DNA of 64,000 bases from Parcubacteria group bacterium Gr01-1014_38 (GTDB lineage Bacteria; Patescibacteriota; Andersenbacteria; UBA10190; CAIZMI01), in the NCBI GenBank assembly GCA_007376145.1, contig VMFP01000004.1, forward strand, positions 70,988-134,987, written 5' to 3'. Of the stretch, positions 8,063 through 53,636 are shown one piece after another. Position 1 is the stretch's first letter, and each line of letters begins with the position of its first letter. The notes below the pieces were generated by a model that did not search any database, had not been told where the DNA came from, and worked only from the letters and a program-made list of their open reading frames with translations. Position numbers and translations under genes: made by a program.

Positions 8063-8084
8063 GTATGCTAGGATCCTAGCATAC
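8063..8084. promoter_or_regulatory. perfect 22-bp palindrome GTATGCTAGGATCCTAGCATAC between divergent start codons (candidate operator or RBS-sequestering hairpin)
   Basis: The reverse complement is identical to the sequence itself. It ends one nucleotide before the ATG of the 2,3-dehydratase (8085) and lies 12-24 nt from the divergent C-methyltransferase start. Confidence 0.4.
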
Positions 8085-10352: not shown

Positions 10353-10388
10353 TGTTCCTCAATGAAATGACGAAGATGACGTAAGCGA

Positions 10389-12173
10389 TCAGCGGGCCGC
10401 CTGAACGCTTTCTGCCACACCGTGTGTAGCGCGTGAGGATTCACGAACGGGCGCACGCGCGGCAAACCCTCCGATGATGAGCGTATCCACGCCGCCGCGA
10501 AGGAATTCTTTCACTGCGTCTTCTGGCGTACACACGATAGGCTCCTCGTGCTTGTTGAAACTCGTGTTGACACAGAGCGGCAAGCCAGTGAGCTCGTTGT
10601 ACCGACGCAGAGCGTCGGCGATGAGCGGCTGACGTCTCTCACTGACTGATTGCGGACGTGCCGTTCCGTCTTTGTGCACGATACCCGGAGCTTTCTGCTT
10701 CGCCTCCTCCGTACATTCGCAACAAATGGTCATGAACTTCGTGGCGTACGCAAACTTTGAAAAGTTCTTGAAGTACCGTGGAGCCGCATCTTCCAGAATC
10801 ATGGGCGCAAACGGCATAAACTCGGTACGCGCGAGTCTCTTGTTCAACCAATCCATCATTGTGGGGTCCGCCGGCTCTGCAAGAATCGAACGGTTGCCGA
10901 GTGCACGCGGACCGTATTCCATGCGGCCTTGATACACGCCGATCACACGTTTTGCCGCAAGTTCGCACGCGATGCGTTCCGCCGGATTGTCGAGCGTTTC
11001 AAGTGCAAGCCCGTGCTTCTGCGCGGCGGCGCGAATCGCAGACTCATCATACTGCGGACCGTAATACATGTGCTCCAGCAAGAACGGATGGAGCGGCGTG
11101 CGTTCGGCGGTGGCGAAGAACGCTGCTCCCGTACACAATCCTCCGTCTCCCATATGAGGAAAGATATGGATACTGTTGACTTCCGGAAGTTCGACAAGAA
11201 GCTGGTTGAGACGCACGTTCGCAAACGTTCCGCCCGCGAGGGCAATATCGCGAATCCCTGTGCGCTGAATCGCTGCGCGGAGAACATCAATATATGCCTC
11301 CTCAAGAACCTTCTGCGCCGCATACGCGAGTTCTTCGCGCGTGGCACCGGGAAGCACGTCCCGAATACGTTTCGCTTCTCCCAGCCAGACACGCCGTTCC
11401 TTGTTTTCAAATCGCAACGCGGAAGCATTTCCTCCGTAGAGCATTCGCAGGCGCGCGTACGCCTCCGGCGAGGGTTTGTATGCGGCAAGACCGGTAATTT
11501 TGCCGGCATGACGCGTCGGCTTGAACCCGCAGAGATGCGTGATAACGTCCCAAAACCGCCCGGAGGAATGCACGACGGACGCGTGCGCGATGCGCGTCAA
11601 GCGGCCGTCGCGACCGACGGAAACGGTGCCCGACACGCCGTCTCCCGAATAATCCGCTGTGAGCACAAGAACGGGATCGGTACCGGCGGTGAAATACGCG
11701 CTCGCCGCATGGCAGGCGTGATGATCGTAAAACCGCACTGGCGCCGTGATGCCATATGATCGCAGCGTCGCGCGGACGGCCGCTCGCGGACGCTGCAGCA
11801 TCCCGACGCCTTTCACGGCACGCGCGAACAGCGGCGAATCCGTCAGCGGTCCAAGTGTACGGGCAATCGTCTCGCCATGACGCTTCCACATATTAATTTT
11901 CTGCGCATCGAACGACAGCGCCATGGTTTCACCTACCTCAAATTTCGATTGACCGGAGATCGCCACGGCGTCAATACTGGCCGGCTCGACACCGGTCGTC
12001 TCAAAAAGATTACGAAGACTTTCGTTAGGAAATCCCCAATGAAACTTCTTTCGCGAGAAGCGCTCTTCGCTTGCCGCATAGACAAAGCGCCCGTCCTCAA
12101 GCAACGTCACTCCGCTGTCGTGCGCGTCGTGAAGACCAAGGACACGGAGCGGCTGCGTGCGCATGTACGCCAC
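10389..12173 (-). CDS. carbamoyltransferase, NodU/CmcH (NovN/TobZ) family
   Basis: The N-terminus LRVLGLHDAHDSGVTLLEDGRFVYAASEERFSRKK is the classic NodU/CmcH ASKHA opening. The C-terminal Kae1/YrdC-like part has HxH-type metal ligands (YDHHACHAASAYF). Confidence 0.8.
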   Translation of the reverse strand: MAYMRTQPLRVLGLHDAHDSGVTLLEDGRFVYAASEERFSRKKFHWGFPNESLRNLFETTGVEPASIDAVAISGQSKFEVGETMALSFDAQKINMWKRHGETIARTLGPLTDSPLFARAVKGVGMLQRPRAAVRATLRSYGITAPVRFYDHHACHAASAYFTAGTDPVLVLTADYSGDGVSGTVSVGRDGRLTRIAHASVVHSSGRFWDVITHLCGFKPTRHAGKITGLAAYKPSPEAYARLRMLYGGNASALRFENKERRVWLGEAKRIRDVLPGATREELAYAAQKVLEEAYIDVLRAAIQRTGIRDIALAGGTFANVRLNQLLVELPEVNSIHIFPHMGDGGLCTGAAFFATAERTPLHPFLLEHMYYGPQYDESAIRAAAQKHGLALETLDNPAERIACELAAKRVIGVYQGRMEYGPRALGNRSILAEPADPTMMDWLNKRLARTEFMPFAPMILEDAAPRYFKNFSKFAYATKFMTICCECTEEAKQKAPGIVHKDGTARPQSVSERRQPLIADALRRYNELTGLPLCVNTSFNKHEEPIVCTPEDAVKEFLRGGVDTLIIGGFAARAPVRESSRATHGVAESVQAAR

Positions 12174-12357
12174 TCACGGACAGTAAGCAGAAGGGCTACT
12201 TCGTGCAACTGCATGGTTCGTAACCGCTCACTGATGGGAAAGTGCCCAAAGAGAGATGCACCGAGCGGGTTTCGAGCGCGCAGTTCGCGCGAGACCCCGA
12301 TCCCTGCAGGGCGAGGAAAGCGAGAGGCGCCCTTCTTGGGCGCTCGTATGCTTTCTG

Positions 12358-14577
12358 TCAGTGGTCGTGTTCGCGCAGGGTAAGATCGGCAAGATGCATG
12401 ACAGCAGACGACGGAGCGGAAGGGAGAACAGCGATACCGACACGAACGGTTTTGAAACTCTTGGTTCCGATAGAACGCGCAATGCGATCCGTACCCGGAC
12501 CGCTATACACATCAATAGCGCCATCAGGACGGAAATCAAAGGCAAAGGTCAACGCACCTGTACCGCGAACTTCCCGCGGATGCAGCGCAACGGCAATGCC
12601 CCACCATGCATCCTTTGTCAGAAACGTTACTTCGGAAAGATTTGAGGGAAGATCAGGACGTATCGTCGCATCATCAAACAGAAGAACAAGCGCGACGGTA
12701 CCTCCGATCTCTTCGCCGTTTTTCCACCGTCGTTCGATGCCTGACAGATCGAGGCGAGCCTCAAGGAGACGATCTGCAAGCTCGGCGTTTGCCCATGTCC
12801 GTCGCGTGCGGAACAATCGGGAGCGGGTGAGGTCGAATGGCGCGTGCGGATCTGCGAATAGTTCTCCTTCTGTGCTCCACGAAGCAGGAAGCGTGTTCTC
12901 TCCTTTCCGCGCTTCCGGGGTCACGCGCTCATACAGCACATACACCGGATTCCAGATTTTGCGCGGGAGCGGACGACCGAACAGGACCGGCTCCCGACCA
13001 AACACCCGGTGGACGCGATACTGTTCGAGCAGCCGCGTAAACTCCGCGCGCACGTTCGGGTCATAGACCAGCTGGCGAAGATCGGGGTCGTAGTTGTCTG
13101 GCTCTTGTTGGGCAACGAGATACCGGACAGATGTTGCTCGATAGACAGTGGTTGCATTCCCCTGCCATTTCCGCAGCAGCGGAGCTATCTGAAGACGGGA
13201 ACGATCGAGGGGAAGGCCGTGTCGCGTGCCCGGCTCAAAATCTCCCACCGCCTCTCCTTCGCTCATCGTGTCACGGAGATACGTCGCCACCTGTTCCCGA
13301 ACGTCGGCACCGACGGCAAATGAGGGAAACTGCGCGAGCGTGATGCTTGCGGTCGCGGCAACCATCACCCCGCCGAACACCGTGGCCGCCCAACGTACTG
13401 CCTGGGGAATGCGCATACCTGGCACCGCGGCAGCCGCGATCAGAGACGGAAACAGCACGACAAAAGGAATAAAGGGAATAAGATAGCGATCGGAATAGGC
13501 GGGAAAGAAACTTAAGCTCCAGAACATAAGGAACGCTGATGCAAGCACGAGCAGGTGGCGAGCGCCTAGACCCGCCCGAAGCGCGAGAAGCGTACTCCCG
13601 ATGAACGCGGCGGCCATGACCGGGAATACCCACCGAAGCGCTGGCCCGGCAACAACAGTGAGAAACATCTTATTCGGTCGCGTGAAGGCATTCCACGTCG
13701 CGCGGAGCGTTGCCACGGTCGGCGGCGGAAACTGCGGTGTGTTATTCGGCAGCGTCGTCTGGATCCCCCACCACCGCGCGAAACCCATGTAGGGGTAGGG
13801 GAAAAGGAGAAGAAAGACCACGACGGAAGTTGCGAGAGAGATGGCCAGATTTCGGAGAGCGCTCTTCCATCGCGGCTTCCGCCAGATCCAGGCACAGAGA
13901 TGCGCAAGAAGGAGAATCGCGGTGAACGGAAGCGCGGAACTTTTGAAAGCGAAGGCTGCACCGGTCAGGAGACCTCCCGCTGCTGCGGCTTTCCACCCTC
14001 CGCGCTCGATGATGCGGAATCCAGCAAGAAGCAAGAGCGTCAGAAATGTCGCAAGGGGAACTTCGCTTTTGATGAGTTGGGAATATCCCCAGTGCCCGGG
14101 GAGAAATACCAAGAGCGCCAATGTAAAGAGACCGGCGCGCGTCCCTCCCAGCGCGCGACCAAGAAGATAGATGGCAACGAGACCGAGGATGCCGAAGACG
14201 CTCACCAATAATCGAGGGATGACATACTCGACGATCTGATTCTGTCCCGCGTTGATTCCGAGTACCTGCGTGAGCGCAACCAGCGGACGACTGAACAAGC
14301 GATAGATAAAGATTCCCTGAATAATCTCGTAATCACTGTAGGTGGTCCAGTATTCTTGCCATGGAATCTGCAGCGCATAGAGCGCATGCACTTCGTCGTG
14401 GACGGGGGAAGAATGCGAGACCGTGTGAGAAACTCCCCAATCAAGACCGCCCATACGCAGAACAATGCCAACACCAAGGAGCGCCCAAAATATTGCGCGC
14501 GGAAACCGCTGTTCCGGAAGCGGAAATGCCGCCAGAACGCGCGTGATCCAGCTACTGAAGCGAACGCGTTGAGACAT
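12358..14577 (-). CDS. GT-C fold membrane glycosyltransferase, ArnT/PMT_2-like (GT39/GT83 type)
   Basis: 739 aa. The first loop has HDEVHALYALQ (DE motif). It has more than 10 predicted TM helices followed by a large C-terminal soluble domain. Confidence 0.65.
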   Translation of the reverse strand: MSQRVRFSSWITRVLAAFPLPEQRFPRAIFWALLGVGIVLRMGGLDWGVSHTVSHSSPVHDEVHALYALQIPWQEYWTTYSDYEIIQGIFIYRLFSRPLVALTQVLGINAGQNQIVEYVIPRLLVSVFGILGLVAIYLLGRALGGTRAGLFTLALLVFLPGHWGYSQLIKSEVPLATFLTLLLLAGFRIIERGGWKAAAAGGLLTGAAFAFKSSALPFTAILLLAHLCAWIWRKPRWKSALRNLAISLATSVVVFLLLFPYPYMGFARWWGIQTTLPNNTPQFPPPTVATLRATWNAFTRPNKMFLTVVAGPALRWVFPVMAAAFIGSTLLALRAGLGARHLLVLASAFLMFWSLSFFPAYSDRYLIPFIPFVVLFPSLIAAAAVPGMRIPQAVRWAATVFGGVMVAATASITLAQFPSFAVGADVREQVATYLRDTMSEGEAVGDFEPGTRHGLPLDRSRLQIAPLLRKWQGNATTVYRATSVRYLVAQQEPDNYDPDLRQLVYDPNVRAEFTRLLEQYRVHRVFGREPVLFGRPLPRKIWNPVYVLYERVTPEARKGENTLPASWSTEGELFADPHAPFDLTRSRLFRTRRTWANAELADRLLEARLDLSGIERRWKNGEEIGGTVALVLLFDDATIRPDLPSNLSEVTFLTKDAWWGIAVALHPREVRGTGALTFAFDFRPDGAIDVYSGPGTDRIARSIGTKSFKTVRVGIAVLPSAPSSAVMHLADLTLREHDH

Positions 14578-32322: not shown

Positions 32323-33120
32323 TCACGACTCTTTAGGAACAGTCCGAACAACGACGGCCTCTGTTGCTTTCAGGGTCGCCGACATCCCGCGTCTGTCACG
32401 CAGCGCGGCATGGTGGCGCCACACGTGTCGCGCGAACGCGCGCAAGAACTTCGGTATCTCTCGTGTCAGACGCAGTTTCGAGCCCCCAAAGCGCCGGTCG
32501 TGAAATGCCACCGGAACTTCACTCACCGCATACCCGCGCACATAGGCGAGGAGGATCATTTCAAACAGCAGCGCATTCGTTTTTTCCGTCGTCGCAATCG
32601 CGTGCCAGGTCTCGCGCCGCATGAATCGAAAATTCGCGGAAAAGTCTCCGATGGGGATACCCGTGATCGTGCGCACGATACGATTGCCCAACCTGCTGAC
32701 GAATCGCTTGATCCAGATCTGACGATTCGACGCCTCGTAGACGCTGCCGGCAATATGCCGACTGCCGACAACGAGGTGGTATCCTTCACGTATCCGGGCG
32801 TACAGACGAAGGAGGTCCCAAGGATCAAACGAGAGATCCGCGTCCATCGAGGCAATCACCTTCCCGCGGCTTTCGTCATAGCCAACGCGGAGAGCGGCGC
32901 CGATGCCTTCTTTCCGTTCCTTTGTCACGAGACGGACCGGATATCCAGCGTCGCACAATGCCTGCGCCAGTGCTCCCGTACCGTCCGGCGATCGGTCATC
33001 AACAATCACGATCTCGTAGGAAAGCCCATGAAGAGCGTCTGCAACCGCCGGCACAAGACGCGCGATGTTTTCTCTTTCGTTGTACGTGGGGATAACGAGC
33101 GACAGTTCGAGAGCATTCAT
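32323..33120 (-). CDS. GT2 polyprenol-phosphate sugar synthase (Dpm1/GtrB-like)
   Basis: LSLVIPTYNERENI...IVIVDDRSPDGT...MDADLSFDP. Confidence 0.8.
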   Translation of the reverse strand: MNALELSLVIPTYNERENIARLVPAVADALHGLSYEIVIVDDRSPDGTGALAQALCDAGYPVRLVTKERKEGIGAALRVGYDESRGKVIASMDADLSFDPWDLLRLYARIREGYHLVVGSRHIAGSVYEASNRQIWIKRFVSRLGNRIVRTITGIPIGDFSANFRFMRRETWHAIATTEKTNALLFEMILLAYVRGYAVSEVPVAFHDRRFGGSKLRLTREIPKFLRAFARHVWRHHAALRDRRGMSATLKATEAVVVRTVPKES

Positions 33121-34361
33121 GACGTGCCTTGGAGAGACTTGGTAACACGAAGATTCTGCGCACCCACGCCAGCCATTTCAGGAGCAGTAAAGACATCGAC
33201 GATTTCCTTCATTTCTTCCTCGGTCAATTCAGGATTATTGCCGACATACAACCCTTGCGCGTGAATGAGCGCGGCATTTGATCGAGACAAGCTCCCCGCA
33301 AGTTGGCCCATGTATTTTCGAAAAAATGGTTGCTGCGTCATGTCGCCCCCCACGATCGGACGAGTTTCAATGCGCCCCTCGCAAGCGGTGACCAGCGAAC
33401 GATGGAGACTCTCCGACTGACAGATAACAGGCAACGCGAAATTAGAAAATGTCTCAAGATGATCATGGCGAAGCGGATAATAGCGATCTGTCAGTCCGTA
33501 GATTGCCGACGCCATGCGATGAAAATTCTTCTCGCGCGTGTGTACAATCTCGGAAAGGTACGGAAGCCCCGCGTTGCCGAGAAATCCCGCAATCTCCGTG
33601 GGACGGAGATTGTACCCAAGGTCGTAAAACGTGTAGCGGGAGTAAAACGTTGAGGCAACCCGATGCTTTTCTCGCAGCGCTGTTTGCGTGGTTCGATCGA
33701 GATTCCGATCCCACCCGTGGGCGCGTACAATGCGCACCATGTTTGCGAGCTCTTGGTCATCCGTGCAGACCGCTCCTCCCTCAATCGTCGAGAACTGATG
33801 CCCGACATAGAATGAGAATGTACTCGCAAGTCCAAAATTCCCAAGGCGCGTTCCCTGGTAGACGGTGCCGAGCGATTCACACGCGTCTTCCAGAAGAACA
33901 ATGCCCCGCTCCGCGCACACATCGCGAATGCGATCAATGTCATCGCACCATCCGAGTACATCGGTAAGAAACAACAGACGCAGCGGATAGGCTTCAAGCT
34001 GATCGAGGAGAGTGCGGCTCGAAACATTCAAGGTATCGAGTTCGCAGTCGATCGGCACGGCGGTGAGTCCCAGTTGCAGTAACGGCATGACATTGGTGGA
34101 CCACGTGAGTGCGGAAAAGCCGACGCGATCGCCCGCGCGAATCCGTTCAAGATTGAACAGCGCCTGCATGAGCGCAAGATTTGCTGAACTTCCGCTGTTG
34201 ACCATCACGCAGTGCTTTCGTTCTTGGAAGATCGCAAAGTTCTTCTCGAACGTCTCGCACGCCGGACCCATGCTGAGCTTTTCGGTGTGGAGGAGAAAAT
34301 CGGCGAGTGCTTCCCGCACCTCCTGCTCGCGATAGAAGCTTGACTTGACGAGGGGAATCAT
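33117..34361 (-). CDS. DegT-family PMP-dependent sugar 3-dehydrase-like enzyme (ColD/E1/SpnQ type: active-site His replaces the PLP-binding Lys)
   Basis: ...VMVNSGSSANLA...FGLASTFSFYVGHQFSTIEGGAV... A His stands where aminotransferases of this fold (e.g. FSFHETKNITSGEGG in the ORF at 24160) have Lys. There is no C-terminal Cys cluster, which makes it ColD/SpnQ-like rather than E1-like. Confidence 0.6.
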   Translation of the reverse strand: MIPLVKSSFYREQEVREALADFLLHTEKLSMGPACETFEKNFAIFQERKHCVMVNSGSSANLALMQALFNLERIRAGDRVGFSALTWSTNVMPLLQLGLTAVPIDCELDTLNVSSRTLLDQLEAYPLRLLFLTDVLGWCDDIDRIRDVCAERGIVLLEDACESLGTVYQGTRLGNFGLASTFSFYVGHQFSTIEGGAVCTDDQELANMVRIVRAHGWDRNLDRTTQTALREKHRVASTFYSRYTFYDLGYNLRPTEIAGFLGNAGLPYLSEIVHTREKNFHRMASAIYGLTDRYYPLRHDHLETFSNFALPVICQSESLHRSLVTACEGRIETRPIVGGDMTQQPFFRKYMGQLAGSLSRSNAALIHAQGLYVGNNPELTEEEMKEIVDVFTAPEMAGVGAQNLRVTKSLQGTS

Positions 34362-43508: not shown

Positions 43509-45107
43509 ATGACGAGCCCCGTACTCCCTGCTCCCTTCTTGGCATTGAGTCGTGTCCCATGGACCCGAGCTCGAAAAGCTTCGTTCCGACTGTTCTCTAC
43601 GGTACTCCCGTGGATGACGATCGCGGCCTTCGCGTACGCGTATGGGCGCCTTGCTCTGCTGAACGAGGCACACCTCAACAATGGGCTCGATCTCGGGATC
43701 CTCCACCAACTTGTCTGGCGCATCAGCCGGGGATCGCTGCCCGAGAGCAGTCTGAAGGGATTTATCCTCTGGGGCGACCATGCCAACTTCCTTCTGTACG
43801 TCCTCGTCCCCTTCTACCGACTCTTTCCGGACGTTCGGACCTTGCTCGTGTCGCAAGCGGTCGCCGGCACCATCGCCGCCTGGCCGCTCTTCCGCGTTGC
43901 GTGGGCGGCCACGCGGAACGCATTCTTCGCTTACGTGATCCTGTTCGCATCGCTGCTGTTCTGGGGCCTGCAAAATGCGTTGGACTTCGACGTTCACGCG
44001 CCCATCTTTGTCATCGCCCCCTTGGCATGGTTTCTCTACGGACTCTACTTTCGCCGCCCGGTACTCACCGGAGGCGCACTGGCGGCGGGCCTGTTGGCAC
44101 AGGAGGACGCGGCAGCCATGTTTGCCGCCACTGGTATCTTTCTCCTCTTCACGCGACGCCGTCGCTGGGGCGTCTGGATCGCGCTGACGTCAGTCGTCTA
44201 CCTCCTCGTCATTGGCTACCTCGTCATGCCCCGCTACACCCCAGGCGGAACGCCCTTGGTGCATTTCGACATCGGCGAATACCCGGGCGGGCCGGTCCGG
44301 AGGACGTTCGGTGCACTCACTCACCCCGCGCGAACGTTCCGGATGGCAACTGACCATCCCGAAAAAGTAGACACGCTGAAGAGTCTCTTTCGGGCGTGGG
44401 GCTACCTCCCGCTTTTTTCGCCGTTCACCCTCGTCTCGTTTCTTCCATCCTTCATCTCGCGCTTTCTCTCCCTCGAAGACCTGCGCTGGGTCCGCGCCTA
44501 TCACTACAATGCGCCCACCTTTCCCTTGTTCGCGTTCGGCGCCATCTTGGTGACCGCGCGGATTTCCCGTTGGGTCACGAAAGGTATTGCCCAGCGCCTG
44601 ACCCCGTTGGTCGCAAGCACCGCGTGCGCACTCCTCGTCGCCGCCGGAACCTACGCCTCCTCAATCCGGAATCGAGATCTGCCGTTGTGGAAGCTCGCCA
44701 ACGCGCGTTTCACCGATCGCCCCTACTTCCCGGAACATGCGGCGCACTTGGTCCGCGGAATACGAGGAGTGATTCCACCGAACGCTGCCGTCTCTGTCGC
44801 CAGCGGCTTTGTCGGCATGTTTAGCAACAGAAAGCGCGTCCATGTTTTCCCGAACCTCCCGTCTACCGGCGTACCCACGTGGATCGTGACGAGTGACCAA
44901 TTTAATACGTGGCCCTTGGCGAAGGGAGAAATGGCCGAGGCCATTGATCGTCTCCGGTCCGATCCCGCGTATGAAGTTATTTGGGACGAGTACGCCATCG
45001 TCGTCGCTAAGCCGCGCCCGCGGGACAGAGGGGCGCAACGTCCGCCGTCGGCACCCTCGCTTCGCGCGGCCCCGAATGCCGACCGCCCGCCAAGCGCTGA
45101 AGAGTGA
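43509..45107 (+). CDS. DUF2079-like polytopic membrane protein (putative GT-C-type glycosyltransferase)
   Basis: The N-terminus ...LNEAHLNNGLDLGILHQLVWRISRGSLPES matches the DLGI..Q..W signature I associate with DUF2079. There are about 10 TM helices. Confidence 0.45.
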   Translation: MTSPVLPAPFLALSRVPWTRARKASFRLFSTVLPWMTIAAFAYAYGRLALLNEAHLNNGLDLGILHQLVWRISRGSLPESSLKGFILWGDHANFLLYVLVPFYRLFPDVRTLLVSQAVAGTIAAWPLFRVAWAATRNAFFAYVILFASLLFWGLQNALDFDVHAPIFVIAPLAWFLYGLYFRRPVLTGGALAAGLLAQEDAAAMFAATGIFLLFTRRRRWGVWIALTSVVYLLVIGYLVMPRYTPGGTPLVHFDIGEYPGGPVRRTFGALTHPARTFRMATDHPEKVDTLKSLFRAWGYLPLFSPFTLVSFLPSFISRFLSLEDLRWVRAYHYNAPTFPLFAFGAILVTARISRWVTKGIAQRLTPLVASTACALLVAAGTYASSIRNRDLPLWKLANARFTDRPYFPEHAAHLVRGIRGVIPPNAAVSVASGFVGMFSNRKRVHVFPNLPSTGVPTWIVTSDQFNTWPLAKGEMAEAIDRLRSDPAYEVIWDEYAIVVAKPRPRDRGAQRPPSAPSLRAAPNADRPPSAEE

Positions 45108-45259
45108 GAGAAAGCCTTGGGTACTCGACGGCTCACGTGGCAAAGAAAATAGTATGGACCACGGGATGTGCTATTTTTTACTCCTCGCGCCCGGCGGCGG
45201 AGGCACTCCTCGCTACTGCGCACGCTCCGTGCTAGCGTGAGACGTCAGTCGTTTTGCTC

Positions 45260-46975
45260 ATGCCCGACGCGCGCGCCATCTACGCGGTATCCGCCTTCCG
45301 GAGCCTGCCGCGGCTCTTGAGCCTCCTGGACCGGAACCCGCTCTCCCCCACCTACGGCTGCTTCCACCGCGACTACTGGCTGTACCGGACGTCGGACTTT
45401 CCGGACGCCGTTCGGCAATTCGGCGTGCATGCACTCGCACTCGCGTACGCAGCGGATCTTCCGCCGAATCCGTACCGAGGCAATGCGCAAATCCGCAGAT
45501 GGGCGATTGCCGCGCTCGACTTCTGGGCAACGATCCAGCATGCGGACGGCTCGTGTGATGAGTTTTATCCCTTTGAGCGCGGATGGGTCGGACCAACGGC
45601 GTTCACCACGTATACCAGCAGCGAGTCCCTCCGCCTGTTGGGCGCGGAAGTTCCGACCGCTGTTGGGAAGCGCGTGAAGACTGCGATCCGCCGCGCGGCG
45701 CAGTTCATCGCGGCGGGTGAAGCGGAGCACGACCATCTCGCGAACCATCATGCGATGGCATTTCTCGCGGTCTCCACGGCCGCCGATGTGCTCAACGACG
45801 ACGAGATTCGCGCCGGGCTTCCGAAACTCTTCGACGGATTTCTCCGGTACTGCACCGCGGAGGGATGGTGCCTGGAGTACGACGGTGCTGATCCGGGGTA
45901 TCTCTCTGCCACGGTTTCGTTTCTCGGAAAAGTCTATGCGCGGCATCCTTCTCCCGAACTCCGAGAGGTTCTGGAGAAGGCCGTTGAGTTCTGCAGCTAT
46001 TTTGTCTACCCGGACGGCTCGTACGCCGGCATGCTTGGGAGCCGAAACACCCTGCATTTCTACCCCCATGGCTTCGAGCTCCTCGCGCCGGAGATACCGC
46101 TTGCGGCGAGCGTGGCGAACCGGATGGCTTCCGCACTCGCCGAGGGGAAACTCGTGCCTCCAGAGATCATGTCCGATCGGTACGTACACTACCGTGTTCC
46201 GGAATTCCTTTTGGCGGCGCTGGAGACCCGCCCGCGGCCAGCAACGCTCACGCCACTCCCCTACCAACGCGCGCCATTCGTCCGGGTGTTTCCCCACGCC
46301 GGCATGACCGCTGCTGCTCACGGACCGGCGTACACCGTTGCGAACCTTGCAAAGGGTGGCGTCGTCAAGAGCTTCGAACGAGAACAGGGACGCCTACTCA
46401 TCAACGACAGCGGCTGGGTGGGAACGCTGGAAGACGGGCGCACGGTGACGTCGCAGTGGATCGATCCGCACTACACGCAGAACATCCAGGAAAACTCCTG
46501 GACGGTGCGCGGACAGTTGCGGGTGGTCCCATCGGCAAAGCCCTTCACACTCTGGACGCACCTCGCCTTTCGCCTGGCCCTCGCGCTGGTCGGCTGGTCG
46601 CCGCGCGCCGCGCACTGGCTCAAAACTTGGATCCGCAAAAGTCTTATTCTCGACAGCCGTCCCGTTGCCTGTATGTTCGAGCGGCGCATTGAACTCTCAA
46701 AAACGCAGCTGAAGATCACCGACGAACTACAGAGTGACGTGCAATTCCGGCAACTCCTCCTCGGCGGAGAACTTCCGGTGCGCTACGTCCCCCAGAGTCG
46801 CTTCTTCCAACCGCACGAACTGGAAAGCCGCAGTCGCATTCTCTCCGACGAAGAACTTGCGCGGGTGAATGCGGGAGAACTCTTCCAGAGTGTGCGTACG
46901 ATTGATGTCGAGACACCGCAGGAGCGCACGGCTGCCGAAGAGGAGCCTGCGAATCTTCACGTTCCCTCTTTCTAG
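45260..46975 (+). CDS. hypothetical soluble protein, 572 aa, no TM or signal peptide, family not recognised
   Basis: The long ORF matches the local codon bias. Internal segments read HADGSCDEFYPFERGW, EYDGADPGYLSATVSFL and YFVYPDGSYAGMLGSRNT. ATG at 45260; TTG at 45254 is an alternative start. Confidence 0.5.
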   Translation: MPDARAIYAVSAFRSLPRLLSLLDRNPLSPTYGCFHRDYWLYRTSDFPDAVRQFGVHALALAYAADLPPNPYRGNAQIRRWAIAALDFWATIQHADGSCDEFYPFERGWVGPTAFTTYTSSESLRLLGAEVPTAVGKRVKTAIRRAAQFIAAGEAEHDHLANHHAMAFLAVSTAADVLNDDEIRAGLPKLFDGFLRYCTAEGWCLEYDGADPGYLSATVSFLGKVYARHPSPELREVLEKAVEFCSYFVYPDGSYAGMLGSRNTLHFYPHGFELLAPEIPLAASVANRMASALAEGKLVPPEIMSDRYVHYRVPEFLLAALETRPRPATLTPLPYQRAPFVRVFPHAGMTAAAHGPAYTVANLAKGGVVKSFEREQGRLLINDSGWVGTLEDGRTVTSQWIDPHYTQNIQENSWTVRGQLRVVPSAKPFTLWTHLAFRLALALVGWSPRAAHWLKTWIRKSLILDSRPVACMFERRIELSKTQLKITDELQSDVQFRQLLLGGELPVRYVPQSRFFQPHELESRSRILSDEELARVNAGELFQSVRTIDVETPQERTAAEEEPANLHVPSF

Positions 46976-46980
46976 CGTCC

Positions 46981-47934
46981 GTGGCCGACGTTCGACTTGC
47001 CACAATCAGCGGGTGGTCCGAGCGCCGCGGACAACTGCGCGGGGTTGTTCTTCTTGTCATCACTGCGCTCATTTTTTATCTCCTGTTCCGTCGCATTGAC
47101 CTCATGTCAGTGCTCCAAACACTCGCAACAATTCCGTTCCGAACCTGGCGTGCGGCGTTTCTTCTCACGATTTCCTTTCCCATGCTCTCCGCGCTTCGGT
47201 GGCACTACACACTGAAGGCAATCGGCCATCGCGTCTCGATACTCCGCTGCTTGAAAATCATCTTGGGGACCTCACCGATCAGCGCGATTGCGCCCTCGAA
47301 AGCCGGCGATCTCTTGAAAGCGTTGAGCCTGCGCGGAGAAATCAGTCTCCTCGAGGTGGGCGGAACAGTGTTGGCAGAGCGTGTACTGGACGTGATTGTT
47401 CTCGCGGCCCTCGCACTGGCTGGCGGCATCGTCGTTGGAAACTCGCTCATCACGCGGCTCGCAGTCGCGATCGTCGGAGCTGGCATCGCGGGACTGCTTC
47501 TCCTCCCCATGCTTGTCGCCTCAATCAAAAAGCCGAAGCTCCGCGAAAAACTTGAGCGGTTGATTCGCGTCCTTCACGCGCTCCGCGCACAACCATCTAA
47601 AGCGTTCGCTATCGCGCTTTTTACCGTTCTCAATTGGCTGGCGTCCATCGTCCAGACACACTTGCTTCTTCTCGCCGTCGGCGCGCATCCGCCCTTTTGG
47701 CTCACGGCAGCGGCACTTCCCATCGCCATCTTCATCGGGCTCATCCCCATCACCATCGGCGGCATGGGGACGCGCGATGCCGCGCTCGTCACGCTTCTTG
47801 CGTCAGCCGCAACTGCACCACAAGCACTGTCTGTCGGATTGCTCTACTCCTTCTTCGGCTATTGGCTTCTTGCGATTCTCGGCCTGCCGTTCATGAAGAG
47901 CGCGCTATTCAGAAACCGGAACCAGCGTTCTTGA
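46981..47934 (+). CDS. UPF0104 / lysylphosphatidylglycerol-synthase-TM-domain family membrane protein ('flippase-like domain')
   Basis: 317 aa with about 8 TM helices. The ...WRAAFLLTISFPMLSALRWHYTLKAIG... and GIGLIPITIGGMGTRDAALV segments match this family's pattern. Confidence 0.55.
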   Translation: MADVRLATISGWSERRGQLRGVVLLVITALIFYLLFRRIDLMSVLQTLATIPFRTWRAAFLLTISFPMLSALRWHYTLKAIGHRVSILRCLKIILGTSPISAIAPSKAGDLLKALSLRGEISLLEVGGTVLAERVLDVIVLAALALAGGIVVGNSLITRLAVAIVGAGIAGLLLLPMLVASIKKPKLREKLERLIRVLHALRAQPSKAFAIALFTVLNWLASIVQTHLLLLAVGAHPPFWLTAAALPIAIFIGLIPITIGGMGTRDAALVTLLASAATAPQALSVGLLYSFFGYWLLAILGLPFMKSALFRNRNQRS

Positions 47935-48000
47935 ACACACTCGTTATGTACTCCCGCGCGTAGACTGGCATACGGAGTATACTCTGTACATGTCCGACTA

Positions 48001-48029
48001 TTGACGAAACGCGGGCCTCGCTGTATTGT
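48001..48029 (+). promoter_or_regulatory. candidate sigma70-like promoter for the two-gene unit
   Basis: TTGACG (48001-48006), a 17-nt spacer, then TATTGT (48024-48029). It lies 60-90 nt upstream of the ATG at 48092. Confidence 0.25.
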
Positions 48030-48091
48030 ACCGGGTCGTTCCTTAACAACCATTCCGTCACCGCACTTTGCGACGAGCGAGGAGGTCAGAC

Positions 48092-48856
48092 ATGCCGGTA
48101 CCAGAAACCAGATATCTCTTCAGCCGCAGCGAGCGAGGTATCTTCGCGGAAATTTACTTTCCCAAGCGAGCGGCCTATTACGGCGCGATCTTCAATGCCC
48201 TGCGGCATGGGTATGATGAGCATGAGGTCAAAACGTATTTGCGGCGCCACGTAGTCGCATTGCTGAACGAGTTTCAGACCTTTCCCGACCTGTTCAATCC
48301 CCACCGATACACTGCGGCTAGGCCTCGGCGCACGCCACCCTCGACTGCCGAAGCGCTGGAGCGTATCGACATGTACCAGTCCCCCTTCAAGGGCTGGTCG
48401 GTGTACTCGGTTGATGGCGTCTTTTTCGACGCCCAAGGGGAACCTACCGAGGAAGCTACCCAGGTAGTGCGGGTCATGTTCCGGTTCGATAGCTCGTTTA
48501 CGGAACAGGCAGCTGCCGCTGGTTGCCCGGATGTGCTGCGGTCGATTCTGTTTTGGGTCATCAGCCAGCAAGGCCGCCTGGACGAGCATAAAGTATGGAG
48601 CAAAGCCGAACAGGCGCAGTTCATAGCCCGGCACAGACCGTGGCCGAAAAGGAAACGGCTGTTTGCCCAGCAGCACTTCCAAGCCATTGCCTCCGAAGCC
48701 GCCAAGTGGGTGGATGACCGCGCCCTATTCGTTTTTGCCTACCTCGTCCGCAAGTTCTGGGGGCAGGTGGTGGAAGAACGCCTCTATGAAGAGGAGATCT
48801 GGGTGATCAACCTCTTTGATCTGGTGGTAAATGTTGTGAAGCGGACTGAACAGTAA
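48092..48856 (+). CDS. hypothetical protein (254 aa), no recognisable family, lower-GC
   Basis: A strong GAGGAGG Shine-Dalgarno sits 7 nt upstream of the ATG. The protein has no TM segments. Its sequence reads MPVPETRYLFSRSERGIFAEIYFPKRAAYYGAIFNALRHGYDEHEV.... Confidence 0.5.
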   Translation: MPVPETRYLFSRSERGIFAEIYFPKRAAYYGAIFNALRHGYDEHEVKTYLRRHVVALLNEFQTFPDLFNPHRYTAARPRRTPPSTAEALERIDMYQSPFKGWSVYSVDGVFFDAQGEPTEEATQVVRVMFRFDSSFTEQAAAAGCPDVLRSILFWVISQQGRLDEHKVWSKAEQAQFIARHRPWPKRKRLFAQQHFQAIASEAAKWVDDRALFVFAYLVRKFWGQVVEERLYEEEIWVINLFDLVVNVVKRTEQ

Positions 48857-48882
48857 CCATGTACTTTGAAAGGAGAATAGCC

Positions 48883-49110
48883 ATGCTTGCCAAGGCAACC
48901 GCGCAATTGGTGGAGGAGGTATTTGCCCACTTTGGAGCAGATGCCAAGCAGAAGGCAAAGGAGAACCCCGAGGCCTGTCTGATCTCGATGCTTACGTTGA
49001 TCAAGAAAGAGCTTCCACATGTTTACGCTACGCTGCGCATGAGCATTGAGTTGGCTCCGTACGACGGCTATCTTCAGGAAGCGCGGGAGAAACTGGAGCA
49101 GACTTCTTGA
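48883..49110 (+). CDS. hypothetical small helical protein (75 aa)
   Basis: An AAGGAG Shine-Dalgarno sits 8 nt upstream of the ATG at 48883. It is followed by an intrinsic terminator. The sequence is MLAKATAQLVEEVFAHFGADAKQKAKENPEACLISMLTLIKKELPHVYATL.... Confidence 0.4.
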   Translation: MLAKATAQLVEEVFAHFGADAKQKAKENPEACLISMLTLIKKELPHVYATLRMSIELAPYDGYLQEAREKLEQTS

Positions 49111-49138
49111 CCTGGTACACGCCTCCGTCTACTCTTTC

Positions 49139-49172
49139 GGCGGCATCATCAACGATGGTGCCGCCTTTTTAT
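49139..49172 (+). terminator. Rho-independent terminator
   Basis: GGCGGCATCATC-AAC-GATGGTGCCGCC stem (12 bp, one G.U pair) followed by TTTTTAT. Confidence 0.55.
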
Positions 49173-49333
49173 AAGGGGAAAGTCATCGTCAGCCGCGAAG
49201 GGACCGATAGTTTGACTCCCAAACTCCATGTACCCGCATCGTGGGTAAATGTCGCACCCTGCCGCTGCACCCAGACAGCGGAAGCTTCGCTGCCTGTTCC
49301 GTTTATTCACACGGTGCTGGTGCCTTTGACGAA

Positions 49334-50158
49334 TCACTTTTCGAACCGCGCGAACTTGACGCCGCGGAAGCGGACGCGGCGGAATCCGGTGCGCGCGGCG
49401 ATGAAACGCATGGCCGTCTCGCTGTAAATGCTCACGTGGGTCTCCGGTTCCTGGAGATAGAACCAATGGTCCTGCTCGCGCTGATAGTCGGGATCCTCCA
49501 AGCGGCGCGTTTGCACCAACAGAACGCCGCCGGGACGGAGAACTCGATGAAGCTCGCGGAACGTTTCCAAAACGTTCGGAATGTGCTCCAGCGTCTCAAT
49601 GGAAAAAATCCCATCAAGGTCTTCTGCCGGGAGATTGGCTTCGGAAATAGGAACTCGAAGAATATACTGGCTTTCTACCGGACTAAACGGGTCGAGGCCG
49701 ATGCAATCGAAGCCTTCCTTCCGAAGCTCCGACACGATGGTCCCATGCCCGCAGCCGAAATCGAGGAGCTTGGGAAAACGTTTTCGGGCGCTGTGCTGGT
49801 ACCAGCGTTCATACAGAGGCACGTGCTTCAGCGCGGTGTGGACGTGACGAGAGGCCCATGCCACCGGTGAGGACATGAGCCCGAGCATTTCCCACCCCTT
49901 TGCGCGCATCTCCTGCGGATCGCCCGACGGCCAGAGGCGCTCCCGCGCGTCCGCATTCGCTGCGTCCTGCGCTACCAATACGTGGGGATGATCTTCCCAG
50001 TGAAAGTTCTGCAAGAAATCGCAGGAGCCACAGTGATAATAGGAAACGCTGTCCACCGTGTGGCGGAGAGACACGGGCGCTCCGCAGAGTTTACAGCCGC
50101 GCTCGGTGCGTGTCGGTGCTTCGGCTACACGGGAAGAAACGGCGAGTTGGTGTTGCAT
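49334..50158 (-). CDS. class I SAM-dependent methyltransferase with N-terminal Zn-ribbon
   Basis: CKLCG...CGSC ribbon, LLDFGCGHGTIVSEL as motif I, then LRPGGVLLV. The start is taken at MQHQLAV (50158). Confidence 0.6.
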   Translation of the reverse strand: MQHQLAVSSRVAEAPTRTERGCKLCGAPVSLRHTVDSVSYYHCGSCDFLQNFHWEDHPHVLVAQDAANADARERLWPSGDPQEMRAKGWEMLGLMSSPVAWASRHVHTALKHVPLYERWYQHSARKRFPKLLDFGCGHGTIVSELRKEGFDCIGLDPFSPVESQYILRVPISEANLPAEDLDGIFSIETLEHIPNVLETFRELHRVLRPGGVLLVQTRRLEDPDYQREQDHWFYLQEPETHVSIYSETAMRFIAARTGFRRVRFRGVKFARFEK

Positions 50159-50346
50159 GTCGGAAGCATACCAGAACCACGCGCCACCAAAGAGACAGGC
50201 ACGAGATACGTTTTCCTTGTCGCCCGAGGCAATTTCGCGTACCATGCGCGCGTGTCAACCCCGTTACCACGGAGTCACGTACTGTGGCCGAACGTACGTA
50301 TCCCTTCCGTCTGCAGTGGGACCGTTCCGCTAATCCCCACACTCTG

Positions 50347-51060
50347 ATGCGAAACGTGGTAACGGGGTCAACCGGTTCGGGTACGGACGACCGCACGCCG
50401 TCTGGGGAACCTTCGTTCCTGCTTCGAGGGATCTTTCACGTTCATACGAGCGCGTCGAAAGACTGCCGAATGTCGGCCGAAGCGGTCGTTTCCAAATGCA
50501 TTGATGAGGGCGTGGACGTCCTGGCAGTGACGGACCACCACGAGATTTCCGGCGCACAAGCCCTCCAACGGCGTGCGCCCTTCCAAGTGATTGTCGGAGA
50601 GGAAATCCGCGCGGCCGAAGGAGGAGAAATCATCGGTCTCTTTTTGAAGGAGAAAATCTCTCAAGGACAACACGCGCGAGACGTGGTGCGGGAAATCCGC
50701 GCCCAAGGCGGCCTCGTCTATCTCCCGCACCCTTTTGATCGAATCCGAACAAAACAGTGGCCTGACGCTCTCCGCGCAGCGCTTCTTGAGACTGCGGACA
50801 TTATGGAAGTCTTCAATGCGCGGAGCATGACGCGCACGTCGGAACGAAAAGCGCGGGAAGCCGCCGAGCGACTCGGGAAGGTCGCGTGCGTCGGCGCGGA
50901 TGCACACTTCCCCAGAGAAATCGGCCCAACGGCGGTGCTGCTTCCTCCCTTCTCCACGCCGGAGTCACTCCTCGTCAGTCTCCGAACGGCGCGCTTCCGG
51001 TGCCAGCGAAGTCCGCGCTGGGTGTTTCCGGCCACCAAACTTGTTGAGCTCCTGCGATGA
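50347..51060 (+). CDS. PHP-domain metal-dependent phosphoesterase
   Basis: ...RGIFHVHTSASKDC...LAVTDHHE...GLVYLPHPFD...GADAHFPREIG is a PHP His/Asp ligand pattern. The 5' part of the listed ORF (49900-50346) is antisense to the methyltransferase and was discarded. Confidence 0.6.
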   Translation: MRNVVTGSTGSGTDDRTPSGEPSFLLRGIFHVHTSASKDCRMSAEAVVSKCIDEGVDVLAVTDHHEISGAQALQRRAPFQVIVGEEIRAAEGGEIIGLFLKEKISQGQHARDVVREIRAQGGLVYLPHPFDRIRTKQWPDALRAALLETADIMEVFNARSMTRTSERKAREAAERLGKVACVGADAHFPREIGPTAVLLPPFSTPESLLVSLRTARFRCQRSPRWVFPATKLVELLR

Positions 51061-53636
51061 GAAACACCCTGCAGTGGTTCGGTGGAGCGGCGGTACTCCT
51101 TATCGCTGGCATTGTTCTGCACGCGCTCATCCTCGTTGATGATCTTCCGGATTTGACGCACGATGTTGCTGACGACCCGGAAAATTTCGTCGAGGTGTGG
51201 GGGACACGCACGCTTGGTCAGACGATTCGGCCTCCGCTGCCAAGCATGAGCGGCATTGCGCTGTCTCTCCACCGCCGACCGGGAGTGCATCTCTCCGGGT
51301 ACATTATCCTCCACATTCGGGAATCCCCAGACGCCACAAACGATCTCCGCATTGTCCGGCTCCCGGTCGTGTTTGTCCGAGGAGATCGCTTCACCGAGTT
51401 CCCCTTTCCTCCTCTGAACACGCGATCTCGAGAAGCCCTCTATCTCTTCATTGAATACCCCGACGGGACCAACGATCGTCCGCTGCTTCTCCGCGCGGAG
51501 CAGCGGGAGGTGGATCGGTCCAAGATCGAAAGAATCGTCGATTATGCGGGCGGAACACTCATCCGCGACCACCGGGCTGCCGCCGGCGATCTCGCCTTTC
51601 AACTCTTGAAGCGCGCACGTCGGCCCTTCGGTCTTCAAGTCATCGGCGCAGCACTCCTCGGAGGGATCAGCCTGCTGATCGGGGGCATGCTGTCCATTGC
51701 TGCACGTCGGCAGTGGGTAAAAACATCATGGATCGTCCCCGCGGTTCTTCTCGTCCTCGGCGCCGGACTGCCGCTCATCTTTTACCTCCCCCTCCTTCTG
51801 CAACCCTCCTTTCTCGGCGTGGGAGACTGGGATATGAACACCACGCTCCACGCGGCGGCGGAACGCGCACTCCTCCGCGAGCAGACGTTCCCGGGGTGGA
51901 ACCCGTATCTCTGCGGAGGGACGCCCCTCGCCGCGTTCCCGGAGGCACCGGTCTTCTCTCCCTTCTTCACCACTGTGCTGCTCGGAGGACCGGTAATCGG
52001 TTTTAAGATGAATGTTCTTCTGCACGGTGCGCTCGGGTTCTTGGGCATGCTCTTGTGGCTGCGAAAGGGGTGGAACCTGTCGTGGCTCGCGGCCTTCGTG
52101 GGTGCGGCCGTCGTCGTTTTTTCTTCTTTTATGGGACTGCATCTCGCCGCCGGCCACTCGCGGAAAGTCGCGGCCGCATGGATCCCATGGATTCTCTTGT
52201 TCTTCCAACGCGCCTGCGCGTCGGAGAACCCGCCGACGGGAGCTCGCGAGCAACACCGCGCGCATCGCTGGCGGTCCCTCCGCTTCGCCGCGCCCGCCGG
52301 AGGATTTCTCGCTCTCATGCTTCTGGACGGAAGCGTGTACCTGTCCATCTACTCCGCGACCTTCGTCGTCTTGGTGGGCATCTTGGCGAGTCTCAATGAG
52401 CGACGTGTACTTCCGATCGCCGCCAGTCTCGTCACCGTCCTCCTCGGTGGACTCCTCGCGGGAGTACACCTCGTGCCGACCGCATATTCCCAAGCCACGC
52501 TCCAGACGGTCTTAACCAACGAAACGGCGCCGGTGCCTCTCCAGGCGTTGTGGCACGTGTTCCTCGATCCCAATCAGCGTGACGACGCGCAGAAATTTGC
52601 CGGTCAGACGCAGCCCTGGCTTGAGTATGGCGCGTACGTCGGTGTCGTCCCCGCGCTCTTGAGCGTGCTCGGGATCTTCACCGCGTGGCGCGCGGTGCGC
52701 CCGTGGGCCGGCGCCAGCCTCTTCTTCCTTCTGGTCCTGGTTTCGTCATCGGTGCAGCGCGGGATCGAGGCAGTGCCAATACTCGGCGATCTCCGCAATC
52801 CGCAGCGCATGGCGGGAATGGTGACGATCGCCATCGGTCTCACCGCCGCACTGGGAACCGAGCGCGTGATGCGGTGGCTTCTCGGGACCGACCGCGCGGG
52901 TTCCCTCTCGTCCTCACCGCCGTCGCTCCATCGCGCCGTTGGCGCCGCTCTCGGCGTCCTCACCACCATCACCATTGGGCATCTCATCTTCGTGAACACG
53001 GAAACGTTGGCGGGAACCTTCGTCGTCCCGCCACCTCCGGCACAGGAGGAACCATTTCGCCAGGGGTGGGCGCGGAATCGCCTCGTGGGGATCGAAGACT
53101 CATTTGTCTTCACTATGGAAAATACGTTGCGAAACCGCGGTTCCATCAACCGCTGCTCGGTCGCGGGCATTCGACCAACGGGCGCGCTCCGCATGCCACC
53201 ACCACGTGACCCCGGGGGAGAAGTTGCCGCGGAGTTCCAGGACGCTCCGTATCGTGGAGAGGCATTTCTTCTCGAAGGGCAAGGCACCGCCGCAGTCGAA
53301 GAGCAAACCACGAATCGCGTCCGCGTCCGGTACCAGACGTCCTCGCCCGCTCTGCTCGCGCTCAACCAGAATTACCATCCAGGGTGGAGAACCTCGCGCC
53401 GATCCACGGAGCAGGATCGTCCCCGAGAAGAACCGGCCACCTTCGTTCAGGGTCTGGTGGCCACCGTGCTCCCACCGGGATCGGGAACGGTGACTTTCTC
53501 GTACACCACGCCAGCATTGAGAGCAGGCATGCTCACCACGGCGTTCGGGATGCTCGCTGCGCTGTGGCTGTGGCATCGCAGCACACTCCCGCGGACTCGA
53601 CGAGCAGAGGGTCGCGATCCTTCTGCACACCGGTGA
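51057..53636 (+). CDS. YfhO-like polytopic membrane protein
   Basis: ...GDWDMNTTLHAAAERALLREQTFPGWNPYLCGGTPLAAFPEAPVF... is a loop motif shared with the ORF at 40951. Its start overlaps the PHP gene stop by 4 nt. Confidence 0.55.
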   Translation: MRNTLQWFGGAAVLLIAGIVLHALILVDDLPDLTHDVADDPENFVEVWGTRTLGQTIRPPLPSMSGIALSLHRRPGVHLSGYIILHIRESPDATNDLRIVRLPVVFVRGDRFTEFPFPPLNTRSREALYLFIEYPDGTNDRPLLLRAEQREVDRSKIERIVDYAGGTLIRDHRAAAGDLAFQLLKRARRPFGLQVIGAALLGGISLLIGGMLSIAARRQWVKTSWIVPAVLLVLGAGLPLIFYLPLLLQPSFLGVGDWDMNTTLHAAAERALLREQTFPGWNPYLCGGTPLAAFPEAPVFSPFFTTVLLGGPVIGFKMNVLLHGALGFLGMLLWLRKGWNLSWLAAFVGAAVVVFSSFMGLHLAAGHSRKVAAAWIPWILLFFQRACASENPPTGAREQHRAHRWRSLRFAAPAGGFLALMLLDGSVYLSIYSATFVVLVGILASLNERRVLPIAASLVTVLLGGLLAGVHLVPTAYSQATLQTVLTNETAPVPLQALWHVFLDPNQRDDAQKFAGQTQPWLEYGAYVGVVPALLSVLGIFTAWRAVRPWAGASLFFLLVLVSSSVQRGIEAVPILGDLRNPQRMAGMVTIAIGLTAALGTERVMRWLLGTDRAGSLSSSPPSLHRAVGAALGVLTTITIGHLIFVNTETLAGTFVVPPPPAQEEPFRQGWARNRLVGIEDSFVFTMENTLRNRGSINRCSVAGIRPTGALRMPPPRDPGGEVAAEFQDAPYRGEAFLLEGQGTAAVEEQTTNRVRVRYQTSSPALLALNQNYHPGWRTSRRSTEQDRPREEPATFVQGLVATVLPPGSGTVTFSYTTPALRAGMLTTAFGMLAALWLWHRSTLPRTRRAEGRDPSAHR

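Follow-up and report, generated by a model that had tools for sequence, protein, structure and literature searches.

Reverse-order toxin-antitoxin (TA) and abortive-infection (Abi) pairs such as RnlA-RnlB, LsoA-LsoB and HigB-HigA carry the larger gene first and a small, faster-evolving partner second, and they are among the closest described counterparts of the element reported here. This element, a two-gene unit, lies at positions 48001-49172 of a 64-kb window, by which we mean the whole stretch of DNA that was analysed, from Parcubacteria group bacterium Gr01-1014_38, a member of the Candidate Phyla Radiation (CPR, or Patescibacteria). Promoter, leader, two open reading frames (ORF1 and ORF2) and terminator together are referred to as the cassette, and homologous loci are labelled L001-L056. 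CPR genomes are tiny, encode a large share of proteins without an assigned function and contain very few defence or TA systems that have been recognised. The cassette shares with the reverse-order pairs not only the order of its genes but also a promoter of its own, a conserved element where transcription is predicted to start, the occurrence of diverged paralogs within a genome, a patchy distribution over varied sites and the decay of the large gene while the small one persists. Unlike these pairs, it resembles no known toxin or antitoxin in sequence or fold, its partner is devoid of a recognisable DNA-binding domain, its leader element is non-palindromic and ORF1 homologs without a partner are found in other phyla.

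Further systems bear comparison. With type II TA systems the cassette has in common that adjacent, co-oriented small genes form one predicted operon, but neither ORF1 nor ORF2 belongs to a recognised toxin or antitoxin superfamily. The 'PDC' candidates of PADLOC and Septu-type pairs are likewise small autonomous gene pairs, and distant ORF1 homologs lie beside Septu, GmrSD, HEPN, TIR and PDC-S01 genes; in contrast to such systems, the cassette matches no PADLOC model and the CPR cassettes lie outside defence islands. Among recent finds of functional metagenomics are two defence genes restricted to Patescibacteria, ldgA and ddgA ('Dallas'), and the Planctomycete-derived tdgA; all three are described as having neither sequence nor structural homology to known proteins, and Dallas is reported to act by abortive infection against T4 (PMC12366544, Cell Host Microbe 2025). 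By these descriptions, the cassette family shows the same unusual pairing of Patescibacteria and Planctomycetes, but the three Patescibacteria inserts among those listed there are from Saccharimonadia, whereas the cassette family is mainly found in Parcubacteria/Paceibacteria and Peregrinibacteria, and ddgA is presented in the preprint as a single gene.

Gene layout and expression signals

The segment 48001-49172 is an autonomous two-gene operon. ORF1 occupies positions 48092-48856 of the forward strand (ATG to TAA, 254 amino acids) and is identical to G01um101438_576, and ORF2 extends on the same strand from ATG 48883 to TGA 49110 (75 amino acids) and is identical to G01um101438_577. The two genes are co-oriented, separated by a gap of 26 nucleotides (nt) and served by one promoter and one terminator. 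Alignments of homologs fix the starts at 48092 and 48883 and disfavour the alternative starts TTG 48068 for ORF1 and ATG 48859 for ORF2. Ratios of nonsynonymous to synonymous substitution rates (dN/dS) of 0.06-0.10 for ORF1 and 0.10-0.30 for ORF2, obtained with synonymous sites near saturation, indicate purifying selection on both genes; on these values, ORF2 would evolve 2-4 times faster than ORF1.

Both genes are preceded by a canonical Shine-Dalgarno (SD) site on the forward strand, GAGGAGG at 48079-48085 for ORF1 (6 nt 5' of the ATG) and AAGGAG at 48870-48875 for ORF2 (7 nt 5' of the ATG), and the homologous cassettes likewise have SD sites. When 36 window genes were scanned, with all in-frame start codons within the first quarter of an ORF taken into account, a canonical SD site was found at the start of ORF1 and ORF2 only (2/36). 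Translation initiation in Gr01-1014_38 thus seems to proceed largely without SD sites, and against such a host the two strong sites of the cassette stand out.

A consensus scan places a sigma-70-type promoter at 48001-48029 of the forward strand, with the -35 box TTGACG at 48001-48006, a 17-nt spacer and the -10 box TATTGT at 48024-48029. Taken alone, this match is at chance level, two sites being found in 4 kb where 1.2 would be expected. Rather, the predicted promoter is credible because 13 homologous cassettes of unrelated context carry TTGACx-N16-18-TAxxxT at the same position, with the -10 box ending 42-65 nt before the ATG. The earlier note on this DNA, made from the letters alone, had proposed the same TTGACG-N17-TATTGT promoter together with the two ORFs at the coordinates given above, a clean intrinsic terminator at 49139-49172 and strong SD sites unlike those of most genes in the window. 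The ORFs and the terminator hold as described, the promoter stands through the comparison of cassettes and not through the scan, and the contrast in SD sites is sharper than had been claimed.

Just 3' of the -10 box, at 48034-48051 of the forward strand, the predicted transcription start coincides with a conserved element that reads GGTCGTTCCTTAACAACC in the window and nnAGTTCTTTGACA (11.5 bits) as family consensus, and that is present in 24-25 of 26 cassettes. Between the window copy and that of L040, 19 of 20 positions of the element are identical, while the remaining untranslated region differs. The sequence GGTCGTTCCTTAACAACC occurs once in the 64-kb window, and across 709 kb the best 12 matches to the scoring matrix include 11 cassette leaders, which are the same sequences that trained the matrix. 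The element may act as an operator or as a 5'-RNA element. It carries a -35-like TTGACA that follows the real -35 box at a distance of about 42 nt, and use of this hexamer by a second promoter was ruled out, there being no consistent -10 box 16-18 nt downstream. The cassette leaders are CA-rich and unstructured, and pairing between leader and SD site as a translational switch found no support, the minimum-free-energy folds being inconsistent between cassettes. We also note an imperfect palindrome, TACGGAGTATACTCTGTA, at 47971-47988, 13 nt upstream of the -35 box; L040, the closest cassette, has GGTATACTA at a similar position and the other cassettes have none.

The intrinsic terminator at 49139-49172 of the forward strand is formed by GGCGGCATCATC and GATGGTGCCGCC, which pair into a 12-bp stem (8 GC) with a 3-nt loop (stem-loop 49139-49165; fold energy -19.9 kcal/mol), followed by TTTTT. 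An equivalent intrinsic terminator, within about 20-70 nt, closes 23 of 24 cassettes, and those of the window, L040, L012 and L043 are homologous, with GCGGYATCA...CCGC in common. A second hairpin type, GACCCCAGTCGTCCTTYGGACTTCTGGGGC, occupies the terminator position in L014 (5068-5094), L028 (5071-5097), L034 (5068-5094) and L054 (7276-7302) and is restricted to cassette ends within the fetched loci. Although the ORF1 proteins of L028 and L014 have only 43.7% identity, their hairpins agree at 36 of 37 positions, a likeness that may reflect either sequence constraint or gene conversion.

ORF1 and its small partner

ORF1 is a soluble protein with an isoelectric point (pI) of 8.6, 15% aromatic residues and a basic PWPKRKR patch. 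Its 114 close homologs (43-76% identity) come nearly all from metagenome-assembled genomes (MAGs) of CPR bacteria or from metagenomes, and when a profile was run against 1.84 billion representative proteins, 315 relatives were recovered at the 50%-identity clustering level, including a distant subfamily at 22-30% identity. No domain fusion, Pfam domain or name was found in these 315 representatives or in 147 profile hits, every protein being annotated as 'hypothetical', and a literature search found no description of either protein family. Neither ORF1 nor ORF2 matched Pfam, NCBIfam or PHROGs. Searches against the 5,027 PADLOC models gave no match for ORF1 and, for ORF2, RT_III-A only (E = 0.028, 11.5 bits), which is noise; the impression that neither ORF has a recognisable family therefore proved correct, no credible match having emerged from these four collections.

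The sole recurrent weak profile match of the family is to DUF3574 (PF12098), a domain for which we know of no function. It was obtained for 6 of 71 family members, the window ORF1 not among them, and covers only about 55 residues, corresponding to the conserved beta-hairpin GYSxYEVDGVF...EERTQVIR; the scores of 17-18 bits (best E = 0.0018) fall below the 25-bit gathering cut-off. Sequence-profile searches of the PDB with three alignments returned noise only.

The AlphaFold2 model of ORF1, computed from the family alignment, is a single domain (pLDDT 86.2, pTM 0.85) in which β1 (residues 15-24) is followed by helices, an α-helix (85-94), β2 (99-112), β3 (118-132), further helices, β4 (235-240) and β5 (245-250), with a 43-residue helix (186-228) placed between β3 and β4. 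Residues conserved across the broad family are E20, Y22, P24, K25, G101, S103, Y105, D108 and G109, as well as E120, E121, Q124, R127, W206, G216, E235, I236 and W237. Most of them are situated on the predicted sheet, and the invariant charged set E20, K25, D108, E120, E121, Q124, R127 and E235 maps in the model to the strands of the central sheet. Such a pattern would suit an active site or a ligand site, and in this model ORF1 appears as a putative enzyme-like effector with a new alpha/beta architecture of a beta-alpha-beta-beta-alpha-beta-like kind. A Foldseek search of the PDB with the ORF1 model gave a best TM-score of 0.17, with Cys-loop receptor noise below it, and no match at E <= 0.001 came from a viral structure library.

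ORF2 is small and mildly acidic (pI 5.6), and 17 close homologs were found. Its AlphaFold2 model is all-helical, with five short helices (pLDDT 75.5), and neither a Foldseek search of the PDB with this model nor a PDB profile search with ORF2 produced a match; structure searches for both proteins, which the earlier note had put forward as a check, thus ended without a PDB relative for either. The idea that ORF2 is an acyl-carrier-like protein was rejected, because neither a PP-binding match nor a DSL motif nor a similar fold was found. In most CPR loci a homolog of ORF2 lies 10-35 nt downstream of ORF1, the pair is kept in about 25 CPR loci, and the evolutionary distances of the two proteins covary (r = 0.86, 210 pairs). 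We infer that ORF2 may be the cognate small helical binding partner of ORF1, which it would neutralise or regulate.

In one clade of cassettes (L020, L021, L022 and L024) the partner carries a basic C-terminal extension that ends in ...HLEKVAA, KIAA, KVSA, KTAA or KASA. In L018 (4787-5155) and L026 (1575-1955) an unrelated protein of 122-126 amino acids with the same tail takes the place of the usual partner, and the cassettes of this group share CTTCTTGTTGTGTTC directly after the stop codon. The tail seems to resemble an ssrA-type degron.

Genomic contexts, copies and decay

About 30 homologous cassettes in CPR genomes retain the promoter position, the leader element, both genes and the terminator, and their surroundings are unrelated. 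The paralog within the Gr01-1014_38 genome (L001, G01um101438_716) lies on the opposite strand in a tRNA array, in the order tRNA-Pro, tRNA-Ala(ggc), cassette, tRNA-Ala(cgc), with the tRNA flanks at 5503-5656 and 7241-7315. Other copies are located between pheS and a Zip-family gene (L006), after a Xer-like integrase gene (L009), upstream of rpsL-rpsG (L040), next to genes for an IS1595 transposase and an HTH_38 protein (L041), near OMP decarboxylase and pilus genes (L054) or within sugar/glycan loci (L003 and L043). When all flanking ORFs of 35 loci were clustered, no recurrent neighbour was found except the ORF2-type partner. Comparison of these loci indicates that the whole unit is inherited or relocated in one piece.

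The distribution of the family is patchy. A search of 185,579 species-representative genomes, limited to set sequence patterns, recovered 28 loci; the labels of the MAGs are Parcubacteria, Staskawiczbacteria, Taylorbacteria, Giovannonibacteria, Paceibacterota, Peregrinibacteria, Peribacteria and 'Saccharibacteria', and some of the loci are from Gemmataceae and other Planctomycetales. Five genomes, Gr01-1014_38 among them, have two copies each. The window copy is 76% identical to a copy in another organism and 62% identical to the paralog in its own genome, and in the tree it groups with the copy of the other organism, the own-genome paralog belonging to another clade. ORF1 has been inactivated independently in 4 of about 31 loci, by a TAG at codon 31 (L024), a TAG at codon 156 (L037), a 1-nt frameshift at about position 4340 (L034) and a 5' truncation (L027), and ORF2 is intact in three of them (L024, L034 and L027). 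Decaying TA modules commonly show an inactivated toxin beside a surviving antitoxin. Together, the patchy distribution and the repeated ORF1 pseudogenes indicate that the cassette is accessory and dispensable.

Essentially all of the 64-kb window belongs to a surface-glycan/deoxysugar region, which contains genes for two YfhO-like proteins, several GT2 glycosyltransferases, a dTDP-sugar 3,5-epimerase, an NDP-hexose 2,3-dehydratase and a DegT aminotransferase, as well as DUF2079, LPG_synthase_TM and methyltransferase genes (examples at 991-3387, 3403-4155, 5241-5798, 7926-9518, 9528-10352, 32323-34361 and 43509-53636); Rfam and tRNA scans of the window gave no match. Counting this copy, 6 of about 30 cassettes (the window, L003, L043, L012, L024 and L027) reside in glycan or sugar loci. 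This position may be incidental, such large variable loci being likely to tolerate insertions, and the range of contexts supports the view that the pair is not part of the glycan pathway.

The earlier note had read the unit as an inserted autonomous module with a GC content visibly lower than that of its flanks, had proposed to check whether the pair is absent from the same locus in related genomes, and had named two observations that would speak against it, namely homology to a sugar enzyme and synteny across the whole clade at a GC content like that of the flanks. Neither such homology nor such synteny was found. The GC dip is real and modest: the segment has a GC content of 0.553, against a window mean of 0.607 (standard deviation 0.042) and 0.585 and 0.590 for the flanking genes, and 10.8% of windows of the same size are equally low. 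The deficit is seated in the second codon positions (GC2 of 0.40 for ORF1 and 0.355 for ORF2) and so reflects amino-acid composition, and since GC at the third positions (GC3 of 0.68 and 0.645) is the same as in the neighbours, the low GC is no evidence of recent insertion. Elsewhere in the window, the stretch at 3.2-10 kb has a GC content of 0.50-0.55, far below that of the cassette.

Absence from related loci was borne out, if weakly. Relatives at about 50% identity keep the synteny of the gene for a 573-amino-acid protein (orf573) and the LPG_synthase_TM gene without the cassette, which makes for weak empty-site evidence because the LPG_synthase_TM relatives are only about 50% identical and the downstream genes differ too. 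The reading as an autonomous inserted module is largely upheld, through its own signals, unrelated contexts and a second copy; GC content does not lend support to it, and the window copy has neither terminal repeats nor an adjacent mobility gene. The 573-amino-acid protein itself (45254-46975) has no Pfam family and is encoded directly 5' of the LPG_synthase_TM gene, with a 6-nt gap; since this pairing is kept at 48-60% identity in several metagenome contigs, we regard it as an uncharacterised conserved partner of the flippase-like LPG_synthase_TM protein.

Possible readings: conflict module, physiological complex or mobile cassette

We tentatively favour the reading of the cassette as an accessory conflict module of effector and neutraliser, similar to reverse-order TA or Abi pairs and distinct from a glycan enzyme, and hold this to be plausible though short of probable. 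In such a module, ORF1 would be the effector and ORF2 would neutralise or regulate it, the activity of ORF1 would be released upon loss or displacement of the partner, for instance through proteolysis or phage infection, and autoregulation would take place at the conserved transcription-start element. Circumstantial support for a TA, Abi or defence function is provided by the architecture, the paralogy, the patchiness, the recurrent inactivation of ORF1 and the presence of distant homologs in defence islands. Indirect hints of toxin and neutraliser roles are the covariation of the two proteins, the ORF1 pseudogenes beside an intact ORF2 and the ssrA-like tails of some partners. Two of the three distant loci with a readable context are defence islands. 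In L056, Septu (PtuA E = 4e-77, PtuB E = 2.5e-20), a HEPN candidate, two GmrSD, HipA_2 and insertion sequence (IS) elements are found at 2726-4710 and 9587-13623; in L046 (8743-14564), a mad2-like methyltransferase gene overlaps the gene by 26 nt and is accompanied by genes for a 456-amino-acid protein, a TIR protein and a PDC-S01 ATPase. The third, L045, has SEC-C, WGR and prophage protease genes in its vicinity.

A number of observations weigh against a conflict function. The association with defence islands is drawn from these three distant loci only, and among about ten annotated contexts of CPR cassettes there is no defence island, housekeeping genes adjoining them instead. The ORF1 homologs of Gemmataceae occur without the small partner, being followed by a gene for a GNAT acetyltransferase, by one for a YhgA-like protein or by nothing, and the distant subfamily is solo as well, so that an intrinsically toxic ORF1 is hard to reconcile with these homologs. 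No likeness of either protein to a known toxin, antitoxin or defence protein was found by sequence or fold, ORF2 has no recognisable DNA-binding domain and, unlike typical TA operators, the leader element is not a palindrome. In addition, no homolog was detected in the viral contigs of IMG/VR, the phages of INPHARED/GenBank or the plasmids of PLSDB. The conservation of ORF1, with 50-76% identity across CPR classes and low dN/dS, is unusual for a conflict gene, and the near-consensus promoter, CA-rich leader and strong SD sites would fit an abundant protein with a structural or physiological role just as well.

We consider it possible, if rather unlikely, that the family is such a lineage-specific physiological complex, namely an abundant cytoplasmic assembly of ORF1 and ORF2 as two subunits, with a regulatory, nucleic-acid-associated or structural role, that was duplicated and, given how poorly CPR genomes keep synteny, became scattered. 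Among the points that agree with this are the very strong expression signals (promoters near consensus, unstructured leaders rich in CA, strong SD sites and terminators), the strong purifying selection and high conservation across CPR classes, the location of cassettes among housekeeping genes and the absence of the family from the phages, plasmids and viral contigs searched. Solo ORF1 in other phyla would also be accommodated, and the aromatic content of ORF1 and its basic PWPKRKR patch are compatible with polymer binding. However, a physiological complex is less easily squared with a family that is rare and patchy (28 loci in 185,579 genomes), whose ORF1 was pseudogenised independently in four lineages, whose copies resemble each other less within a genome than between organisms and whose distant homologs are found in defence islands, nor does any recurring neighbour suggest a pathway.

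That the cassette is a selfish, non-autonomous mobile element appears improbable. In this case, the 5' element and the 3' hairpin would be recognition sites, and recombination at hairpins or terminators would proceed in trans or be carried out by ORF1 as a new recombinase or nuclease. Like IS200/IS605-type elements and integron gene cassettes, the unit is compact (1.1-1.3 kb), ends in a conserved 3' hairpin, has no inverted terminal repeats and occupies many sites. L003 is flanked by a direct repeat of 46 nt with 100% identity (5857-5902 and 7012-7057) that spans the ORF2 stop codon and the terminator hairpin, and L014 by one of 69 nt with 83% identity (3843-3911 and 5153-5221), which could be scars of insertion or duplication. 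Mobility would further be consistent with the own-genome paralog inside a tRNA array, the copies that adjoin IS1595/HTH_38 elements or an integrase, the conserved 5' element, the invariant acidic residues and tyrosines of ORF1, and the GACCCCAGTCGTCCTTYGGACTTCTGGGGC hairpin, which is better conserved than the proteins.

However, the repeats of L003 and L014 differ in length and position, such that local duplication is possible, and the window copy, like most others, is without flanking repeats; candidates for terminal repeats around it were rejected as chance-level matches of 10-19 nt. No mobility gene was found to adjoin the window copy, and no transposase or recombinase domain or fold was found in the cassette proteins with Pfam, NCBIfam and Foldseek, nor does ORF1 exhibit transposase or recombinase homology or a HUH, DDE or tyrosine/serine-recombinase motif. 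In contrast to IS200/IS605 elements and integron cassettes, the cassette has no HUH or tyrosine transposase, no TnpB and neither an attC site nor a nearby integron integrase; it carries its own promoter, and its hairpin is an ordinary intrinsic terminator with a T-run. There is no sign of recent transposition, because no near-identical copies exist within a genome, and the GC3 is fully adapted to the host.

We give hardly any credence to an accessory surface-glycan function, such as that of a new enzyme of sugar modification and its small carrier or adaptor, recruited into glycan loci, which the location of six of about 30 cassettes and the carrier-like size and helical character of ORF2 might suggest, since some co-location is expected by chance with glycan loci that are very large (more than 60 kb here), and against which stand the want of a match to sugar-enzyme or carrier families, including a PP-binding match or DSL motif in ORF2, the location of most cassettes elsewhere (tRNA genes, pheS, rpsL, IS elements and pilus genes) and the possession of an own promoter and terminator by a unit that is not embedded in an operon.

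Returning to the conflict module that we tentatively favour, a more specific proposal, which is doubtful at present, is that the cassettes represent an undescribed class of such modules, centred on the CPR/Patescibacteria and with relatives in Gemmataceae and in defence islands. ORF1 would then contribute a fold absent from the PDB and ORF2 the neutraliser, and the unit, including the transcription-start element and the 3' hairpin, would relocate without a known recombinase of its own.

The outcome of the analysis is a portable two-gene module with exact boundaries, conserved cis-elements, strong predicted expression signals and purifying selection, whose ORF1 has a confident predicted structure and no known structural relative. 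The transcription-start element and the 3' hairpin, the latter better conserved than the proteins, are noteworthy in themselves and can be tested. The interest of the cassette is moderate at present and would be higher if toxicity, defence or mobility were demonstrated. If it is a physiological complex instead, it would offer a compact and well-defined target for the new genetic tools for Patescibacteria. If it is a conflict system, it would provide a new effector fold and a new pair of toxin and neutraliser, and would help to explain how CPR episymbionts cope with phages or mobile DNA.

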